Below are positions 710 through 64,000 of a DNA stretch of 64,000 nucleotides, in pieces. How positions within the stretch are numbered: position 1 is the first letter of the stretch; each line of letters opens with the position of its first letter. The notes under the pieces are model-generated. The model saw only the letters and a program-made list of their open reading frames with translations, was not told where the DNA came from and did no database searches. The translations under genes were made by a program, and so were the position numbers. Source of the DNA: Chrysomallon squamiferum (taxonomy: Eukaryota; Animalia; Mollusca); assembly GCA_012295275.1 (NCBI GenBank), contig CM022670.1:24490001-24554000 (forward strand), written 5' to 3'.

Positions 710-973
710 CTTTTGTATATACTGATATTGAAAGTTTGGGTGTGACGTATCTGACACGTCTACGTTAAATGATACAGTTTTGTTAACAGTCTGAGATGCC
801 AGACTCTGATTACTGACTCCAGCGGAGAGAGATCCAGGTCCAGCACTGTACGAATGATCGGGGGCAACCTGCTGAGAATTACGTCTCGTGTTCGTCCTAG
901 AATTGCTGCTGGATCGTCTCCTTGCTTCTCGGTTTTTGCGAACTATTGTTCCCGTCCTTCCTAGCATGGACAT
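710..973 (-). CDS. Putative variable first coding exon A (88 aa, MSMLGRTGTIVRKNR...RRNS...KTVSF...YIQK) of an unidentified spliced gene
   Basis: ATG at 973 with in-frame TAG 7 codons upstream; consensus donor AAG|GTAAGT at 710/709, phase 0; paralogous to exons at 5903, 13600, 20415, 31588. Confidence 0.8.
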
Positions 974-2002
974 AGCGTTTTTATAAAAAAACTAATCCTT
1001 GGAATGTTTTAAACAATGCTTTTTATTCACTCGGGATATGAAATTCAGTAAATATACATTACTATCTTTGTCCTTTTCAAAACAAACTTATAACTTCCAA
1101 AAATAAGTTTCCACATTAACGTTTCAGAACCTGTTGCTATGTTAAAAACAATGACTTTTCAATTTCTCCAGCACTTTAAATGTTTTCCCTTATACGAATG
1201 TTTTTTTATACAAGCTTAAGTTTTATAAAACATTGCGTCCTTTTGCATTCGAAGTAAATAAGTCAACTGGCTTTCATTAAAAACACTTTTATACAAAGTA
1301 TTCAGAAATAATTAAAATAGTCTTAAGTTTCGCCAGTTTCTTAACATCAAGACCTTCCACACCGAAGTATTTAAAGTAATCTTGCGTAACCGCCTGAACA
1401 CGAGAACAAAAACTTTCGAAAAGCCAAAACGACGGCAACTGACCAAACAGTGACCAAAGGTCCAATTATTAGATTCCAATTAAGGAGATTCGGAGCAAGC
1501 ACGTGTTTTGGAATCGAGAGCGTACATCAAGCGTTTTTCGCTGACCTTTCGGCTGAGTCGAAAAATCAATTAATTCATTTAACGGGTCCTTTGGAAAAGT
1601 GGTCTTCTGAAAGACGACTAACAAGGTTTGTCGCTCTGAAGGTGTAGCAGGGGAAAGGTGGTGAGGAAAAAGCTGCTTGACTTCTAGACGACAGTGAAAA
1701 TGAAACATGATGGAAGCGCGCAGTCTCCATCACACAGCACGGCGTGTCGCACCAACTCATCTCATCTCATTTTCACCCCCATCTCATCCCGTCACGTGGC
1801 ATCTCTCTCGGAGAATTAATAAAAATGATTTTTATTGAACATCTTTGACACGCAATATACACTCAGGCAGTACTGGAATACACATAACAAATTGACGATA
1901 ATGACAAGTTAATTAAAGTCAGATCGAAAAGTGACATTTATATGTGAAATGCATTCAGTAGACAAATATATTAGCAGAGTAAGAAACAGTACACGCTATA
2001 TA

Positions 2003-2900
2003 TATCGTACTAACAGTACATTGTAGTATTAATGTACACGACAGTATAAATAGTACTAATTGTACACAATTGTATTAATTGTACACGACAGTGTAAATAG
2101 TACTAATTGTACACGACAGTATAAATCGTACTAATTGTACACAATTGTATTAATTGTACACGACAGTATAAATAGTACTAATTGTACACGACAGTATAAA
2201 TCGTACTAATTGTACACAATTGTATTAATTGTACATGACAGTATAAATAGTACTAATTGTATACAATTGTATTAATTGTACACCACAGTATAAATAGTAC
2301 TAATTGTACACAATTGTATTAATTGTAGACGACAGCATAAATCGTACTAATTGTACACAACTGTATTAATTGTAGACGACAGTATAAATCGTACTAATTG
2401 TACGCAATTGTATTAATTGTACACGAAAGTATATAAATCGTACTAACTGTACACAACTTAATTAATTGTCAACAACTGTATTAATTGTACACGACACTAT
2501 AAATCGTACTAATTGTACACAACTGTATTAATTGTACTAATTGTACACAACTGTATTAATTGTACATGACAGTATAAATCGTATTAATTATACACATTTA
2601 TATTCATTGTTCACTGCAGTATGTATTAATCGTTCTAACTGTACACGTTTGTATTCATTGCACGTGCAGTATTAATCGTACTAATTATACACAATTATGT
2701 TAAATGCATAGAGAGCACTATTAACCATTCTAATTGCTGACAATAGTATTAACTGTACTAATCATACTTATTATACACGATTGTATTAATTGTTCATTAC
2801 CGTATTAATCGTAATAATACTAATAATTGTGCGTAATAATACTAATTCTACACGGCTATTTTGATCGCATTAACTGTACATGATTATATTAATCATACTA
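2003..2900. repeat. Composite minisatellite (47-bp and 28-bp units built on TAATTGTACAC), decaying rightwards
   Basis: Unit ACAGTATAAATAGTACTAATTGTACACAATTGTATTAATTGTACACG starts at 2041, next starts 2088 and 2116. Confidence 0.9.
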
Positions 2901-3516
2901 ATTTATCGAACATATAACTGTATGCTGAATTGTATAATAACACCAGAATTTTAGTTGAATTTGCAGAATCAAAAAAAAAAAAAAGAAAAAAAGAAACAGA
3001 AATCAAATATATTAGTAAAACCCATTATGAATACGCCAAACACATTGTGCAATACAATTTTGATTCAAGTTAGAGATAACATATAATTAATTATAATATA
3101 AACAGTTCACGTCAGAAACGAAACTTGTTATTGGGTAGTTTATGCACTGCGCATTCTACCTGATCAATGAGTAATAACCACAAACAGTTTGTTTATTGTG
3201 GCTTTATTCTCTGTAAAGCAAATTTGCTTTCTTTACTTCTCTTTTATCACCTACCTTTTCATCACAAAATGGCTGACGTGGTCAAGATCTATTTTTTAGG
3301 CAGTGGCTTTACGATATTATTTGAAATAGAGATCGAATCTTATAAAAACAGTTATTCGCCTCTGCTTGAGATTACCATGAGATCGAATCTCGAAAAATAA
3401 AGGAAGGGAGCAGTTTCCCGTTTTATGGCTAATTAAATAGATACGTAACAGATATAAAATAAAAACTACATATTTCGCAATATTATACCCATATATACAC
3501 ATATATACATAAAAAT

Positions 3517-3549
<33 letters not shown>

Positions 3550-3864
3550 CAGGTACCGGACCAACGATCCGGACTCCTTGGGGCCTGAGGCATTCCGGAT
3601 TTCTGGATTTTCCGGTTTTCTGATACCAATGCATCTAAATAGGTAAATAATTAGGCATAAACATTTTAAAACTAAAAACATAAAGAAAATTGACGATACA
3701 CAACTGTGGCGACTCGACACGTAAACAATGCGGCGAGTTAATGAACACCATTTTTCGGTTTTCTATGAAAATAGCGTCGGGAAAAAAAAATAGCGCCGGG
3801 AAAAAAATTCCGGTTTTCTAGTCTTTCCGGATTTCAGGAAACCGGATAATTGGTCCGGTACCTG
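3550..3864. mobile_element. Non-autonomous DNA transposon (MITE), TA target duplication, Tc1/mariner-like; copy 1
   Basis: TIR CAGGTACCGGACCAA / TTGGTCCGGTACCTG flanked by TA on both sides; second copy at 39255-39596. Confidence 0.85.
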
Positions 3865-3914
3865 TATATGTTCATAGATACACATACGATGCTGTGTACA
3901 TTCAGACAAAGATG

Positions 3915-3936
3915 TATACATACGTACACACATACA

Positions 3937-3970
<34 letters not shown>

Positions 3971-4137
3971 CATACATACATACATACATTCATTCATACA
4001 TATATACATTCATTCATACATAAATACATACATACATACATACATACATACATACATACATTCATACATACATACATTCATACATACATACATACATACA
4101 TACATACATACATACATACATACATACATACATACAT
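3915..4137. repeat. (TACA)n microsatellite
   Basis: Direct reading. Confidence 0.95.
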
Positions 4138-5167
4138 GCTTGCAGAACTACAGAATTACCAGAAACACTCACATTCGCACAAATAAATCGTAAAACAGCT
4201 GTCGTTATTTTAAAACACAAGAGTTGCTATAAGCAGTGCAAAGTGAATCTCTATATGTCATCGTTCTTGGTCAACAAAGTAACGACAAAAAGCCACGCAA
4301 CAAAAACACGCATTGAAAACAAAACGAGCAATGAACGTTTAAAATACATCAGTAACAAAAACTTGGTACAAAATACAAAAGGTTATGATCAGGAAGAATT
4401 TTCCGGTGACATTTAGTTTCTTTGGTTTTTTTTTTTTTTATTATATTGCATTGTAAATAATTAATGAAATAGCAAAATAGAAATTATAAAATAATATTTA
4501 TGCAGTAAGAAGACAGTCTTTTGATATATAAAACGATGTGACAGAAGAGTTGAAAATGCAATTTCACGAGCTTGTTTATTGTAATTATATTTTGGTATCG
4601 GGAAAAAGTGGTCATTAGAAACTAATAAGCCAGTTATTTGGAATTTAACTAAGACGAAAAGTATTCTTTAACAACAGTGAAACATCACGGCACTGAAAAT
4701 TTGTTTTACTCATTAATTGACTTAAATTGCGAATTCTGTGCATAGCGTTCATTAAGAAAAGGATCAGTTAGTATCATAAAGCAGGTCTTACATCCTTAAC
4801 GGAATGATTAAAATGATCAATCTACGACATTAAATTATTTCTTTGATCTGCCCTGTAATCTCAGTTAATCAATTGTTTTCCTTCGTTTCATTGTTGGCTT
4901 CTTGGCACTGTGTATTCCACAATGCTTTGTGATCATATTAATTGCTTATAATGAAATCTCATCAAAAAACTGCATTCCTAAGTTAGGACGAGCTGCCTGA
5001 AATTTCTAGATCAATTGAATTTGTATAACCTTGGAAACAGCAAGATATAACAAATATGTCTTCTTCGTTAACCTTGGGTAAAAGATTCAACAGTTATTTG
5101 TTTTGACGCGTTTACTCATTGAACATTATTTTAAGTATTTTATTTTAATAATATGTAGACTAATTAC

Positions 5168-5228
<61 letters not shown>

Positions 5229-5275
5229 TTATAAAATAATAATAAAATAATAATAATAATAATAATAATAATTAT
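5168..5275. repeat. (ATT)n followed by (AAT)n microsatellite
   Basis: Direct reading. Confidence 0.9.
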
Positions 5276-5597
5276 ATAAACATTTTTAGTTTTTAGAAAA
5301 AAAATAAAAAATAAAACATTGAAAAAGAAGCCCTATAGACCGATATTATTAAAACATATTCTATTCAATGTTTTACTCAGGAACTTTCGCTACTTTACTT
5401 ATTCTCTTAATTACTGAACATATCAAAATGAGGTTAAGCTACTATGTGTAAAAAATACATCAGAAAAAAACAATGAGTATATTCCCTAGTTAAATCTAGG
5501 AACTGTACCGAAGATCTATATCCATTCCGCAACACAATCACGTTTTTTAATTTAAGGGGGCTGCAAAAGGGGACAAAGCTGAGAAAACGACTCTGAC

Positions 5598-5903
5598 CTC
5601 GTGCAGGGACAGACTGTCGGGTCTGTGCACCTGCTCCACGTCCAGACTGAACGACACACTCTTGCTGGGCGAGGGAGACGGCTGAGGGGTGAGGCAAGGG
5701 CGTGCCACGGTTTCCGCGCTGCGGCTGATGGAGCAAGGTCGGAACGACTGCGTCGTAACTGGCGACATCGTCGGGGCCGACGCACGTCGTAGATGATGAG
5801 CGTTCTTGTGAAGCCGGGTTTGTTGTCGTGAAAGTCCGTGTCCGTGTGAACGCCGCCGATTTTTCCGAACTACTGTTCCTGTTCGGCCCAACATGGACAT
5901 CAT
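5598..5903 (-). CDS. Putative variable first coding exon B (102 aa, MMSMLGRTGTVVRKNR...RRASAP...KSVSF...SLHE)
   Basis: ATG at 5903/5900 with in-frame TAA 7 codons upstream; donor GAG|GTCAGA at 5598/5597, phase 0; GC-rich island in AT-rich flanks; N-terminal codons differ from exon A almost only synonymously. Confidence 0.8.
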
Positions 5904-6910
5904 ATTGTGAAACCACTTTTTTTAAATAAATGATTTTTATTTCTCTGTTTTCTTCCTTTGACTTTTATATTAGTCAGTACATCGTTTAACTTTGCTTTGA
6001 AAGAATTCTCTCCAATGTACAGATTAAAATAACCATATTATCGTTTACAAAAGTTTGTGAAGATCATCATCAGTTAGTTTCTGTTGAAGATACAAGATTC
6101 AGGTTATGCGAAACTAACCATTTCTAGTGCAGAAAACCCAGATATTCATTTCGTTGCATATAAAAACCATTAACAGCCATCAGTTCTTGCAAAATGTTCG
6201 TAATACACGAATCTAAACGTTCTGCTATTTCTTGATGATTATTAAAGCAGTATTGAAGCTTCCAAGACATTCGGGAAATTTCCTCCACAGATTGGAACGA
6301 TGGCAAAAAGCAGAATGATTCATTCATAATGAAATTAAACAAACTATCTTCAGGAATGGAATAAGAACAATTCGTACTCAGTTACCCTTTGACTACTAAA
6401 AAAAGACGTGTTATGTGTTTCGGTTTTTTACTTTTCAATAAATGCAATCTAAACTGATATATCATGTAGCACTTCGACAAAAATTGTCTGAACAAATTTT
6501 AGCAAAAAATGCTCAGAACAGATAATATTTATCAAGTCCTTTCAGCTCATGAACTTACTGATTTACTTTCAAATTTTTTTTTTTAGTTCATTAAAACATA
6601 GTTATTGCTTGGAACATATGTAAAATTTCAACATCAAAGATGCACACAAGTGGAGAAATCCCGAAAATAAACATCCAAATCCTTAGTGTATCGGTGTTTT
6701 TAAAACTGAACAGACTGCAATAGATCATTTTCCTAAACAAAAACTCTTCAAATCGTTAAAATGATTCAGGCAGTTATAATCCAAAACAGCATAAACGAAT
6801 ATAAGTGCGTTCTTTTTTTTTTTTTTATTATTATTTCCATGTAAATATTATAACTCATAACTGTAACTTCCCCAAAGTAAGAGAATCATTAAAAAGTCAT
6901 TTTGGGTCTT

Positions 6911-7824: not shown

Positions 7825-8272
7825 CAGGGCAAACAAGTTTTATGGGCTTCAGCATATAAAACAGCTGTATAAATTTTCCAATAGTCACGCATTTCGGCAT
7901 TAATGAGCTGGAAATTAAAACTTCTGGCTGGATCTTTTTGCCTTTGGGTGGAGCAGCCTAAGTCACGATACGCTACAGCTTGGCGGTAATCGCGGGAACT
8001 TTCAGGTTCCGTTAATTACTGGGAAATCGCTTGCGGCCCAAATTGTCTTTTTAATTGGGAACCACGAGTGTGCGAGATTAATGCCGTACAACTGCAGTAC
8101 GAATACCCACGCAGCAGAAGAGATTATTAGTTCTAACTTCGTTGACACACCAAGACGGATTCAGCACAAGGCGGGCAACACAGAGATTTTCACTTACACT
8201 GTTGTTTTGTTTGTTTTTTTAATTTGATTTGGTATACTTTCTAAAATTATTTTATTTTAATTAACTGTACCG

Positions 8273-13600: not shown

Positions 13601-15930
13601 TATGAATTAAAGTTCGTTGGCTTTCCAGTATCGATGATAGAACAATTTATGATATTTTCGTATGGTCGAAGGTGTTATCCATCCTCTGCTCACACGCAAA
13701 GTAAAAAGGGAAATGAATTATGTCGCAGCTTCGAGGAGAGTAGATATTTGAGTAGAAATTTTGAGTCGTGTGAAGATTTCCATCTGTTTTGTGCACAGCA
13801 GCAGAACGATTAATATTTTCTGCCACTGAGATATCTTTAGCATTAGAAGACGTCTTCACATTCACTTTGCTTAGTGAGGCAATTTTTCAAACTGATGCTG
13901 TACTCTGAGTACAGTTATTATTGCCAGACCTGTGTTATTCCAAAATGCGTTATGTCGAGAAAATACACATTTGTTTTAAGTCAGATATTTTTAATTTTTT
14001 TTTTTTTTTTTTTAAATGCGAAATTGAAGACATGTAGATACTCGTGATAAATGATAAAACATTTAAGCGCACGTTTTATGGAATCTGTTGAAGGTGTTGC
14101 TGGACAACATCATTTAGCGTGTCTCTCCCGTCCAAGGTGATCCATCTTCGATCACACAATGGAGGGTCATCATTTACGACATTTTTTTTTTACAATGATT
14201 TACACACGCTGATGGTGTCTGAGATAAAATTGCATCCGCCAAGTTTTCATAATAGTAGCTAATCAACAACCATCTCGTCGCTTTTAAGAGCAGGACGGAA
14301 TAATATCCCAAGGTTTGTGTTAACACTGATCCATTGTCCATACTGTCGTCACCAAAGTCGTAAATCTCAACCAGAGCAAATGTGGCTGAGAGGCTTCTGG
14401 TTATCGTTACAAACGTATCATCCTTTTAATTAAAAATCTCTCCCAGCTAATATATAGCTTAAGAGAATAGAGAGTACGATGGGTGACGTAACTGGCAATT
14501 ATTTGAAAGGTAATCAAAATGAGATCAGCGTATAAGGGGGGAACATGTGATGATAGTAAGAGAGTGATAGTAGAGACCAAAATGGGAAGAAAAGTGAGCG
14601 AGAAAAAAAATGAAAAATGAAAAAAACAGACTGACATTAACAATCCGCGATATATACAAATGTGTGTGTGTGTGTGCGTGTGTATGTGTGCGAGAGGGAG
14701 GGACAGAGAGACACAGAGAGATAGAGAGAGAGACATGTCGTGGACAAGTAACGTAGAATAACATAATACAGGGTAGTGAAAACACACCTCCCCCAGTTAC
14801 ATTCCTCATTCACCAAAATCCTCATAAACATTCTGCATTGTGTTGAAACATGAAGTGTAAATGTCCAGTGATTTGACATCAGAGATTTGTTTTGTTTTTT
14901 AATATAAAGCAATAAGCTCGTCACACTTTGTTCAGGTGTCTCATAAGTGCTGGACAGTTATTAATATGTCGTAGTGGCAGAACACGTAATGCGTTTGTTA
15001 TAAACCGCACTGCTCTGAGCGAGATGTGAACAGTCTCGTCTGAAGTTATATCACATGTTTACGTGTTACGTCTACCATTTAGGCCAGATTCGGACGATCA
15101 TGTGTACAGCGATTATAATCTCACCGGATATTTCAGGACAGTAATTGTCTCCTTTATTAATAGCAGGGCTTTAACGTATTATTCATTTATTTCCATAACT
15201 GAGTTTATTCATTCTAAATATCATGCCAGTTCAAATAATTAAATATGCGCATCCCATCCAGACGGACAGTCAGAGACACAGACACACACACAAACACACT
15301 CTAGCACAAATACATGTAATATATACCAACATAATGCACACGCCATTTATACCGTCAAGTGAGAAAGTACCCCGCTGATAAGAAACACAGTGCAAGCACG
15401 TATCTACAGGATAATGAAGGATACAACCATGCGACAGGAATTCATTTAAGCAGTGAATAAGAAAACAAACTAGCCACTCACGTATAGTAAATGTGCTATG
15501 TCAGTTCAACGCTAGTTATTACTCTCGAGCTTCAAACCATATTCGTGCGAATGGCAGTTAAAGTAAGTATATCAGGAATATTACGAGAGCATCAGGAGTA
15601 TTTAATACGTTTATTTTACGATCGATAACACAGAAGATAACAGTTATTTTCTACGTGATGAATGTCTGGAGTGTAATGCGGTGATGCACAAATGGATGTC
15701 GGTTTTACTCATATATATCATAATATAAACTGCATCTGCATACAGTGCATTGATTTATAATAATGAAAGACGTTATATACTTTTCAGAGATTTATAAATC
15801 TGAACAGTTTTGCATGCCATTGCTTGTAAAAGTACATTCATATATAAATAATACATACATACATACATACATACATACATACATACATCCACACACATAC
15901 ATACATCCACACGCATTCATACACAAAGTT

Positions 15931-16130
15931 GTCGTGAGGGCCGAATGGCCTGCTACGGAGGGCGGGCTATTGGGTGGCATAAGTTCGAGTCTCGTCAGCG
16001 GCATCTGACTTTCTCCTCATGTGCCAGTGCGTTCCCGAATATTGTCTATATACTGAGACTAATAAGAGACACATGAGACAGAGATGTTCAGTCCTAAATA
16101 CATACATACATACATACATACATACATACA
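15931..16130 (+). mobile_element. tRNA-derived SINE candidate with (TACA)n tail
   Basis: 5' GTCGTGAGGGCCGAATGG resembles a tRNA-Ser/Leu 5' end and A box; B-box-like AGTTCGAGTC at 15982-15991; TCAGCGGC can pair with the 5' end; ~100-bp body then TAAATACATACATACA tail. Confidence 0.55.
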
Positions 16131-39254: not shown

Positions 39255-39596
39255 CAGGTACCGGACCAATTATCCGGACTCCTTGGGGCCTGAGGCATTC
39301 CGGATTTCTGGATTTTCCGGTTTTCTGGTACCAAAGCATCTAAATACGTAAATAATTAGGCATAAACATTTTAAAATTAAAAACATAAAGAAAACTGACG
39401 ATACACAACTGTGGCAACTCGACACGTTAAACAATGCGGCGAGTGAATGAATGCCACGCGGCTTGAAAGAGTAGTTCCAGTCTGGTGAGTACCAAAACAC
39501 CAGCGCGCGCGAACTATGAAAATAGCGTCTGGAAAAAACTTCCGGTTTTCTAGTCTTTCCGGATTTCAGGACGCCGGAGAATTGGTCCGGTACCTG
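39255..39596. mobile_element. Same MITE family, copy 2
   Basis: Same TIRs and TA flanks; internal sequence nearly identical to 3550-3864 apart from an indel/replacement region near 39450-39515. Confidence 0.85.
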
Positions 39597-39988
39597 TACA
39601 CACCCTCACACCCACACATCCACACCTCCACACACCCACACATCCGCACACCCACACACCCACACCTCCACACATCCACATACGTACATAATAGATAGAT
39701 AGCACATACATAAAATAAAAATTATGTATATGGGAAAATCGTGTTCGTCCTTTTTATAGCCACTTAGATATTTTTATATGTTAATTATAATGTGTGATTT
39801 CATGTACTAGACATTATAAGTAATTTCTATTGCCTTTATAGTTAACAAACATGTATATTATTACATTTACATAAGTAATTCTAGAGGATTTTGTTCAGGT
39901 GTTTTTTTATTTTATTTCTTTTTTTTGTTTTGTTTTTGTTTGAGACTTTATATTATTTATAACAGATTAAGTTGTGTAATTAAGTCTA

Positions 39989-50029: not shown

Positions 50030-50345
50030 TGTATAAATGGAAATTTAACAGTTAATTGCTCGAAATAAATGGTACAAATGGGTGCAGTGCATGTGTTTAA
50101 GTCCGTTTTTCGTTCAGTCACGAGCTTCTCTCAGCTGTGTTGATCAGATGACATGAAGACGTCATACGTGCTTGTAGTGTTCAGATTCTCGTTTTTCTTC
50201 TGCTTCCATTTAGACTTAACACTTTTGTAATTTACCCTTCCGATATGTCAAGACGAATAACAGTTGAAAAAGAATAAAACCAATAATAAACAAAAAAGAA
50301 AGTTTGTGTAGTGAGTTTAAGAGTCTGAAAAGAAGAGGAGATATT
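50030..50345 (+). repeat. ~310-bp dispersed repeat, copy 1 (copy 2 at 56865-57180)
   Basis: AAATTTAACAGTTAATTGCTCGAAATAAATGG...AAAAGAAGAGGAGATA matches 56865-57180 with few substitutions. Confidence 0.9.
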
Positions 50346-51640: not shown

Positions 51641-51979
51641 TGTGCTTGTGTGTTAGTGTACGTTAATGCGTTTGCAGGTTTGCTGACATCTTCCTTCTTT
51701 TTTCTTGAACCAGATAATATATACAAACTTTTAATTTTTATTATTAATAACGTTGTGCTTTATATAAGATACACTCATGTTGTTAACGTATCAGTGGTAT
51801 GTATATCTTCCTTTCACAATAAATATGTATTTTTTCAATCCGTGCTTTCTTTATTATCAGTCTAATTTAAACGTATGGAATCAGTTACGTGGAACAGGAG
51901 CTTAATGCAATTCACTGTCGTTCGTGAACTTGGAAATAAAGAACCGCAAGCTATTCTGAGGACCATTCTACTGGATATA

Positions 51980-52762
51980 CAGTGGTACCACGATTTACGA
52001 GTGCCCCAACTTACGAGTTTTCCGAGTTACGAGCAGTCGCACGGTCGAGTTTTTGCTTTGAGTTGCGAGCCAAAATCGGACTTACGAGCGAGCTTTGGAT
52101 ACGCTGCCGCTAGTTGGCGCAACGAAGAACACAACATCCGCCCAGCATCCCGCAATTCACTCGTTTGCTTCAAATGGTTACCTCGCCGTGGAAGCATCTC
52201 TGTTATGTTGTGCTCGCGTTTTGTGCAGTATTTTTCCAAATTTCTATAGATCCTAAGAGACTGAGTGCAAAGAACAGTGCTGAGAAGAAGAAGCGGATGA
52301 TGTCTATTGAATTAAAGGATGAAATCATAGAAAAACATGAGCGAGGTGTGCGTCTAGTAAACATGGCTAGGCAGTACGAACGTAGTACATTACGATATGT
52401 ACTATACTGAAGCAGAAGGAGTCGATAAAGGCTGTAACTCCAGCCAAAGGCGTTAAACAATTTCTAAGCTGCGGACCTCTGTCCATGAAAAGATGGAGAA
52501 ACCCTAATCCTGTACACTTTACAAAACCAATTTATTTCCTTACGTTCTCTTTTATTTTGTTTTTATGCAATATTTGTCATCTATACATTCATTTTTCTTA
52601 TTTAAAAACACGTTACAAAACATTTGGGTGGTTTTGGGGATTGGAACGGATTAATGGTATTTCACTTAATTTCATTTTGAAAAATTGATTTGATATACGA
52701 GCAAATTTGAATTACGAGCTCGGTCACGGAAAGAATAAAACTCGTAAGTCAAGGTACCACTG
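51980..52762 (+). mobile_element. Internally deleted Tigger/pogo-family DNA transposon
   Basis: TIRs CAGTGGTACCACGATTTACGAG / CTCGTAAGTCAAGGTACCACTG, left TA flank; contains transposase N-terminal remnant. Confidence 0.88.
52246..52500 (+). pseudogene. Tigger transposase N-terminal (CENP-B/Psq-type HTH) remnant
   Basis: PKRLSAKNSAEKKKRMMSIELKDEIIEKHERGVRLVNMARQYERST then, across frameshifts, TICTILKQKESIKAVTPAKGVK and ISKLRTSVHEKME; no DDD catalytic domain. Confidence 0.8.
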
Positions 52763-56864: not shown

Positions 56865-57180
56865 ATATAAATAGAAATTTAATAGTTAATTGCTCGAAAT
56901 AAATGGTACAAATGGGTGCAATGCATATGTTTAAGTCCGTTTTTCGTTCAGTCACGAGCTTCCCTCAGATGTGTTGATCAGATGACATGAAGATGTCATA
57001 CGTGCTTGTAGTGTTCAGATTCTCTCTTCTCTTCTGCTTCCATTTACACTTAACACTTTTGTAATTTACCCTTCCGATATGTCAAGACGAATAACAGTTG
57101 AAAAAGAATAAAACTAATAATAAACAAAAAAAAAAAAAGTTTGTGTAGAGAGTTTAAGAGTTTTAAAAGAAGAGGAGATA
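56865..57180 (+). repeat. ~310-bp dispersed repeat, copy 2
   Basis: Direct-orientation near-identical match to 50030-50345. Confidence 0.9.
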
Positions 57181-62937: not shown

Positions 62938-64000
62938 GACCTCTCTCTCAATTTTTTCCTCAAGACTGAGCACCTAAAAAGGTTTAAAGAAAAAACAACG
63001 AAGTTAATGTAATAACTGGTGTCCACGTGTTCGGTTGGCGGGCCGGACTAAAACCCCTCGCGGGCGGGATGTGGATCGTGGGCCAAAGGTTGCCGACCCC
63101 TGAGTTATATGATTCGATCCACAATCAGAGATGACTGGTCGACCGGGTGGTATGCTGTTATCTCTCCATGTTTCAATGGACTTGTGTATCTTTGGGAATA
63201 GATAAAATTTTCGAGTCTGAGATTCAAATCGTGATGCTAGATAGTTCATCTGTTTTTTTACTTATACGACCTTTTTCCTGTGAATGAACACTATTTCTGT
63301 TAAATTTATTTCTATTGGTTTGCCAGATGGCTTCGTCCAATTTTGTATTATTTAGTTGCCTTTGGGCTTCGCGGATTTAATTTTCCCTTGATAAGATAAC
63401 AGTTACTGATCCCTCGTCTGCGTTTTGATTATTATTTTGCGCTTTTTTTTTTTTTAGACAGTTGAGAGATTTTGTTTATTTGAATAAACCGTTAATTTTC
63501 GAACATTTTCATATACATTATTGTAAGTTTTAACTATCTCGGGATCTATATTTGAAAGATGGGGTGTTCAACCGGAATTTTCTGCGAATGGAGATTTTTC
63601 TCCTCTTGAGTCTCTAAAATAACCGGCTAGTTTCACTTCATGTTCATTACGCCGTTATCGAAGAGTGCTTCTAAACTAGTTTTGGGTTGGAACAAAATTA
63701 AGGCCTCGGTCCAGTAGTGACCTTTCGGCGTCGTTAGATTTACGATGCTTGTATCTAACCCCTTTATTATGATGGTTATTTCCTTTACCTGAATTTAGTT
63801 TAAATTTAAGACATTTAACCAATTTAAATATATTCTGTTAGATGTACCTTCAGTCCAATGGATTAGATTGTGGATTACTTTCAAACTCGTTGTCTGGGAT
63901 TGCGGGTATTATATTTCTGTTCCTCAAAGTTTTAGCTGCCATTTTAATTTCTTTTAAAAAAATTAATTTGCTTTTTCCTAAAAATAAATAATAATTTGGA
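62635..64000 (-). mobile_element. Decayed Penelope-like retroelement (reverse transcriptase remnant), running off the right edge
   Basis: Minus-strand fragments in expected order: SLLDRGLNFVPT (~63690-63725), IIIK.ADEGSVTVIL (~63395-63440), FYLFPKIHK...PPGRPVISDCGS (63115-63210), then YNISEYTEYYLKP..SFVKNTDDLL...FLVTLDIDS (62640-62758); frameshifts and deletions. Confidence 0.85.
62760..63102. mobile_element. hAT (Charlie-like) MITE inserted in the Penelope RT
   Basis: TIR CAGGGGTCGGCAACCTTT / AAAGGTTGCCGACCCCTG; 8-bp flanks TGTTATAT and AGTTATAT (7/8); internal (CA)n. Confidence 0.88.

Follow-up and report, generated by a model that had tools for sequence, protein, structure and literature searches.

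The 64,000-nucleotide stretch of Chrysomallon squamiferum DNA analyzed here (assembly GCA_012295275.1, contig CM022670.1, positions 24,490,001–24,554,000; the window) carries five short homologous coding exons, named A to E. Very probably, a single TMEM272-like gene of gastropods uses them as alternative first coding exons and splices each in phase 0 to the same shared exons. The tails encoded by the exons are homologous to the N-termini of mollusc proteins called TMEM272 or TMEM272-like by their sources. Exon B gave one longer match, a 305-aa scallop protein (E 0.063), whose N-terminus in turn matches exon D (E 2e-12) and then each of the five exons. Scallop proteins match exon D at E 4e-14 to 7e-12, and family searches gave 42 and 29 matches under the sources' own TMEM272(-like) name.

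Isoforms of other gastropods carry the layout proposed here. The four retrieved isoforms of Patella vulgata (X2, X3, X4, and X5) have different homologous N-termini and one C-terminus, and Haliotis rufescens X1 (P0065) and X2 (P0051) have different homologous tails on the same C-terminus. These limpet and abalone isoforms are already present in automatic annotations; RNA-seq is the usual basis of models of this kind. The last residues of exon A are IQK, which also stand directly ahead of the shared region in Patella X3 and Lottia, and read-through gene calls (counterparts of D and E; Haliotis X2) enter a valine (GT) at the same junction. Searched with a profile of the constant region, the 2853 six-frame pieces of the window gave no match (best E 0.13). 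In a planted control with 20-residue gastropod pieces and a profile built without gastropods, 21 of the 30 pieces reached E<0.003 and 24 outranked every window piece. No membrane-domain exon was found between or around the five tail exons within the 64-kb window, which would put the constant exons downstream of A, to the left of base 1.

A profile of the tails detected exactly five exons over the window (E≤3.4e-16), and the next score (E 7) excludes a sixth copy within it. All five are on the minus strand, with frames open to the donor and a phase-0 GT at the end. An in-frame stop lies 2–19 codons 5′ of the ATG in each of the five, so none of them is an internal coding exon. Of the 4204 GT sites on the minus strand, only the donors of A and D have a perfect score. 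The window consists of AT-rich (GC 0.27–0.38 per 2 kb), microsatellite-rich animal DNA, in which all five exons are GC/CpG-rich islands (GC 0.46–0.60 vs 0.28–0.37 in the flanks).

The likely product of the exons is the disordered tail at the N-terminus of a four-helix, TMEM272-like membrane protein of molluscs. In the model of Haliotis X2, residues 1–110, the part encoded by the exons, form a low-confidence block (predicted local distance difference test score 39–53), and there are four long helices (146–168, 178–206, 214–247, and 264–307). The tail is probably cytoplasmic, as suggested by its basic, signal-less start and the four helices. In Pfam, none of the five exon peptides matched at E≤1, and 49 family members gave only four scattered matches at E≤0.01 and no family model. 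No solved relative was found by sequence, and Foldseek gave no match at E≤0.001. The VIA structural matches (Orai, the best, at Z 10.6; sarcospan, 10.1; PRPH2-ROM1, 9.1; CD20, 8.9), interspersed with BAR domains, all score below Z 13, a level that helical bundles attain by chance, and are matches to generic helical bundles. In the ESM Atlas, exon B had nothing above 0.76, while the scallop protein matched unnamed clusters from molluscs, nematodes, and rotifers at 0.92–0.96. A small heat-shock, phosphodiesterase, or glycogen-targeting-subunit identity, suggested by resemblances of the motifs, was rejected, the homologues found being TMEM272-like.

The original prediction was that the 15-codon N-terminal motif shared by exons A and B is under selection at the protein level, and codon comparison over all five exons bears this out. 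The codons on which it was based were verified (minus strand, 973–929 in A and 5900–5856 in B): seven of the 15 differ synonymously (9 nt) and one non-synonymously (ATA/GTA, I/V). The synonymous differences per synonymous site (pS) reach 0.74, near saturation, against 0.03 for the non-synonymous equivalent (pN), with 3, 0, and 7 differences at codon positions 1, 2, and 3. When 10 random substitutions were simulated in the motif, at most one residue was altered in 2–6 of 200,000 trials; this figure is inflated, because the segment had been chosen for its amino-acid match, and conservation in other molluscs is therefore the better evidence. For all 10 exon pairs, pS is 0.69–1.20 vs a pN of 0.04–0.40 over the first 13 aligned codons.

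The absence of similarity that had been reported for linkers and flanks was correct for the flanks, where 20 of 20 comparisons of 300 nt stayed at z ≤2.2, and has to be corrected for the linkers: A and B have an RRxS site and K[TS]VSF in common. DNA similarity extends past codon 15 in three of the 10 exon pairs (z 3.6–6.0). Paralogous linkers are unrelated once motifs are masked (z ≤0.7), with a masking that was imperfect in leaving RRASAP of B in and taking part of the diagnostic stretch of A out. The codon-position bias and the lack of DNA-level likeness across the flanks speak against a recent repeat family, in agreement with the original prediction, and against a transposon.

The age of the duplications was judged from a tree of 36 tails, with support given as paired values. 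Exon B falls in a group with Batillaria P0072 and with four proteins that are unnamed (95/98), exon D with Haliotis X2 (94/95), and exon E with Patella X4 and P0096 (99/92) and with Pomacea X2 (86/75). Whole-tail best-hit scoring fails to assign the counterparts of A, the shared motifs being dominant, and the tree and region identities were used instead. A single species-specific clade of the five window exons was rejected (approximately unbiased test, p-AU 0.008) with the 23 of 36 rows that represent named species, after 11 unnamed proteins, Lineus, and Patella caerulea were dropped. Together with the saturated synonymous sites, the exon-specific counterparts and this rejection indicate that the duplications are old, in agreement with the original prediction. 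We infer from these comparisons that B, D, and E at least arose before the limpet, abalone, and caenogastropod lineages split. The bivalve, octopus, chiton, and heterobranch snail matches have one tail of this type each, an absence of further tails that is limited by search depth. The unnamed proteins P0107 and P0108 form a tail clade of their own (100/99); they may have been duplicated independently or come from a further lineage.

The supposition that selection is confined to short motifs fits the paralogue comparison, in which linker identity is 15–29% and motif identity 41–88%, but is otherwise not supported. Linkers are also conserved when counterparts of one exon are compared: identity is 40–51% for B (five proteins), 66% and 34% for D, and 65% and 43% for E. 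The 40–66% identity of linkers between close counterparts, vs 15–29% in paralogues, supports a constraint that would extend to exon-specific linker segments and not only to short motifs. Linker identity in distant counterparts (Patella X4, Pomacea) is 22–24%, no higher than among paralogues. In a second DNA sample, exon B has four variants, too few for a test: three are synonymous, of which two lie inside the first 18 codons, and the fourth changes R to P in a linker. That the exons have translated products, another earlier claim, is supported only indirectly, through the annotated isoforms of other species.

Two short motifs recur in the tails: RRxSAP is present in 29 of the 36 and an RVxF match in 24. 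RRxSAP is predicted to be a basophilic kinase site within a 14-3-3-like motif, and K[ST]V[ST]F to be PP1-docking-like; RRxS is what we take to be a PKA site. B and D have both motifs, A has the RVxF match without SAP, and C and E have RRxSAP without the RVxF match. The RVxF consensus used, [RK]x0-1[VI]{P}[FW], comes from PMC4794898, and within the predicted disordered tail it is matched by A, B, and D and not by C or E. In exon A the sequence reads RRNSQQ, against RRGSAP in the nearest counterparts (Haliotis, Patella, Lottia), which would mean that the 14-3-3-like motif was lost, and RRxS kept, in this lineage specifically.

These features suggest a mechanism. An ancestral single first exon may have been tandemly duplicated early in gastropod history into the five-exon array, with each copy under its own promoter. 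Selecting one first exon or another, a step that promoters probably control, would swap the tail on a fixed four-helix membrane domain. The tail is predicted to be a phospho-switch platform that combines a basic N-terminal patch, the RRxS kinase site inside RRxSAP, and an RVxF-type PP1 dock, and the differing motif content of the copies would adjust how the membrane protein is trafficked or regulated in different cell types. A more far-reaching version, which we put forward as doubtful, is an early-fixed gastropod repertoire of five interchangeable intracellular tails on one tetraspan protein, with one-to-one counterparts maintained in the different subclasses and a choice that depends on cell type, that forms a combinatorial 14-3-3/PP1 phospho-switch code and not a birth-and-death recognition domain. 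GC/CpG-rich non-coding islands are present at 1551–1825, 7926–8175, and 15876–16100, 0.6–2.3 kb upstream of A, B, and C. It is possible that they are promoters or leader exons; no strong donor was found within the three.

Several observations weigh against alternative first exons of this age and function. The shared exons lie outside the window, and the exon join proposed for this genome is extrapolated from the isoforms of other species. The donors of C and E score 5/7, as do 124 of the 4204 sites, and that of B is weak, under the 5/7 cut-off, so that the 3′ end of B is placed by inference. Acceptor-like sites occur upstream of C and E, and some exons may follow a non-coding exon. In the tree, A pairs weakly with Haliotis X1 (93/75) and C weakly with the unnamed P0106 (90/84), while Patella X2 and X5 are unplaced; X5 is collinear with exon C up to its donor, yet matches at only E 0.37. 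The named-species tree is poorly resolved, with two of 20 branches starred. For A (31–35%) and C (20–25%), linker identity with the counterparts exceeds that among paralogues barely or not at all. Metagenome contigs were scanned with the tail alignment and with the full-length gastropod alignment, and neither scan found orthologous DNA. As for the motifs, RRxSAP fits the 14-3-3 consensus RSXpSXP, as given in PMC4482762, only loosely, and about 25% of proteins contain the short RVxF consensus by chance, according to PMC4794898. The conservation of an RVxF-type motif over four mollusc classes argues against chance. For the exon B region (5400–6300), none of three RNA runs yielded sequence; the second sample is DNA, and its contig runs unbroken over the exon B donor.

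Other explanations can be set against the same evidence. The tails might belong to five tandem paralogous genes, with their own membrane-domain exons between the tail exons. The spacing of 5–11 kb has room for small genes, and Pecten has a second TMEM272-like protein (P0040) in addition to P0007, so whole-gene duplicates do exist in the family. But the 64 kb contain no constant-region exon, in a search where the controls outranked the window pieces in 24 of 30 cases, and one C-terminus is common to the limpet isoforms, and likewise to those of abalone; this explanation is already largely refuted and extremely unlikely. Mutually exclusive second exons, with a shared promoter and a non-coding leader exon (or a spliced leader) and a choice made by splicing, would give the same protein products as alternative first exons. 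Acceptor-like sequences upstream of E (31678) and of C (13729) speak for such an arrangement, which we nevertheless consider unlikely: A, B, and D have no acceptor-like site within 150 nt upstream, and the GC-rich islands upstream of A, B, and C may be separate promoters.

It might also be that only some of the five exons are in use, with A or C being decaying relics and the A/B likeness the result of an old gene conversion. Exon A is without the RRxSAP kept by its nearest counterparts, C has a long end branch (1.9–2.25), and the counterparts of B, such as Batillaria, have an N-terminal motif more diverged than that of A and B is from each other. Against decay stand the five frames open to the donor, the perfect donor of A, and the GC contrast between the exons and their flanks. 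Conversion is opposed by the saturated synonymous sites of A and B with only one residue different, which means that constraint has outlasted any such event. This combination appears very unlikely, and alternative first coding exons on one constant region are retained as the most likely explanation of the array.

Table 1. Coordinates of the proposed variable first coding exons and of their motifs in the window.
Feature	Position	Strand	Remarks
Variable first coding exon A, 88 codons	710..973	-	Nearest to the inferred shared exons; donor AAG|GTAAGT, phase 0
Exon A contents	710..973	-	N-terminal motif, RRNS (SAP of other copies lost), KTVSF
15-codon N-terminal motif, exon A	929..973	-	Codon comparison with B
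Variable first coding exon B, 101–102 codons	5598..5903	-	Two adjacent ATGs; donor GAG|GTCAGA, phase 0
Exon B motifs	RRASAP 5789-5772, KSVSF 5663-5649	-	Motif scan
15-codon N-terminal motif, exon B	5856..5900	-	Codon comparison with A
Variable first coding exon C, 88 codons	13337..13600	-	Most diverged; donor AAG|GTTTGT, phase 0
Exon C motifs	RRYSAP 13513-13496	-	Without RVxF match
Variable first coding exon D, 86 codons	20158..20415	-	Donor CAG|GTGAGT, phase 0
Exon D motifs	RRGSAP 20334-20317, KSVSF 20232-20218	-	Motif scan
Variable first coding exon E, 96 codons	31301..31588	-	Most distal; donor GTG|GTAAGT, phase 0
Exon E motifs	RRCSAP 31516-31499	-	Without RVxF match

The window contains several repeats besides the exons. 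Two copies of an element of about 320–350 bp with terminal inverted repeats, resembling a miniature inverted-repeat transposable element, lie at 3549–3870 and 39255–39600, and a minisatellite with a 47-bp period (14.7 copies; sub-periods of 28 and 75 bp) occupies 1999–2703. A dispersed repeat pair, about 85–90% alike in translation, is found at ~50030–50280 and 56866–57113. Broken frames at 51866–52688 (+) and 63004–63261 (-) had no Pfam match at E≤0.1; presumably the former resembles the start of a pogo/Tigger-type transposase and the latter that of a Penelope-like reverse transcriptase.

The variable-first-exon layout has been described for UGT1, GCNT2, and the clustered protocadherins (PMC1885805). 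Like these, the array consists of homologous first coding exons in tandem and in one orientation, joined, as proposed here, to one constant set, and GCNT2 with its three variable exons is the closest in scale. There is no sequence relation to them, and the paralogues here have only motifs in common. The variable part also differs, being a disordered, predicted cytoplasmic tail of 86–102 residues here and a substrate-binding or adhesion domain in those systems. B, D, and E seem to be kept across gastropod subclasses, whereas PMC1885805 describes species-specific duplication, birth-and-death, and, for the protocadherins, gene conversion. An unrelated protein, PPP1R3D, has an N-terminal region with an RVxF and a 14-3-3-type phosphoserine motif, as is predicted for the tails; its binding was tested (PMC4482762), while the tails match at the level of motifs.

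There is a close likeness to the isoforms of Patella vulgata (XP_050416669, -71, -72, and -73) and Haliotis rufescens (XP_046329119 and XP_046329120), which agree in family, motifs, and junction position, and whose tail types match A, D, and E. These isoforms come from automatic annotation, in which the array is not described. Only Batillaria and unnamed proteins supplied the B type, and SAP is lost in A of C. squamiferum. In Lineus longissimus and in decapods (Macrobrachium, Panulirus), annotated isoforms of TMEM272-like genes differ at the N-terminus and share a C-terminus, and one of the N-termini opens with the related motif MSML-x-R-x-GT; promoter choice at the TMEM272-like gene may therefore predate molluscs. 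Their alternative N-termini are of another type with no window match (best E 0.29 or none), and no array of homologous copies was seen. This second N-terminal type, M-[SA]-[GF]-..-[IV]-[GA]-S-R, alternates with the MSML-x-R-x-GT type in the nemertean and the decapods and is on a separate paralogue in Pecten; the proteins concerned are P0025/P0027/P0059/P0026 (Lineus), P0029/P0031 (Macrobrachium), P0034/P0037 (Panulirus), P0039 (Lingula), and P0040 (Pecten). A two-way choice of first exon may be ancestral to protostomes and divided between duplicates in scallops.

A full-text literature search found neither a description of the array nor a function for the TMEM272-like family. The array adds an invertebrate case to the variable-first-exon genes, one in which the exchanged part would be a disordered regulatory tail. 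It also offers a natural series in which, following duplication of an exon, short linear motifs persist and the linkers grow apart. The conserved kinase, 14-3-3-like, and PP1-docking motifs predicted in the tails, kept or lost copy by copy, would give a first concrete handle on this uncharacterised membrane family.

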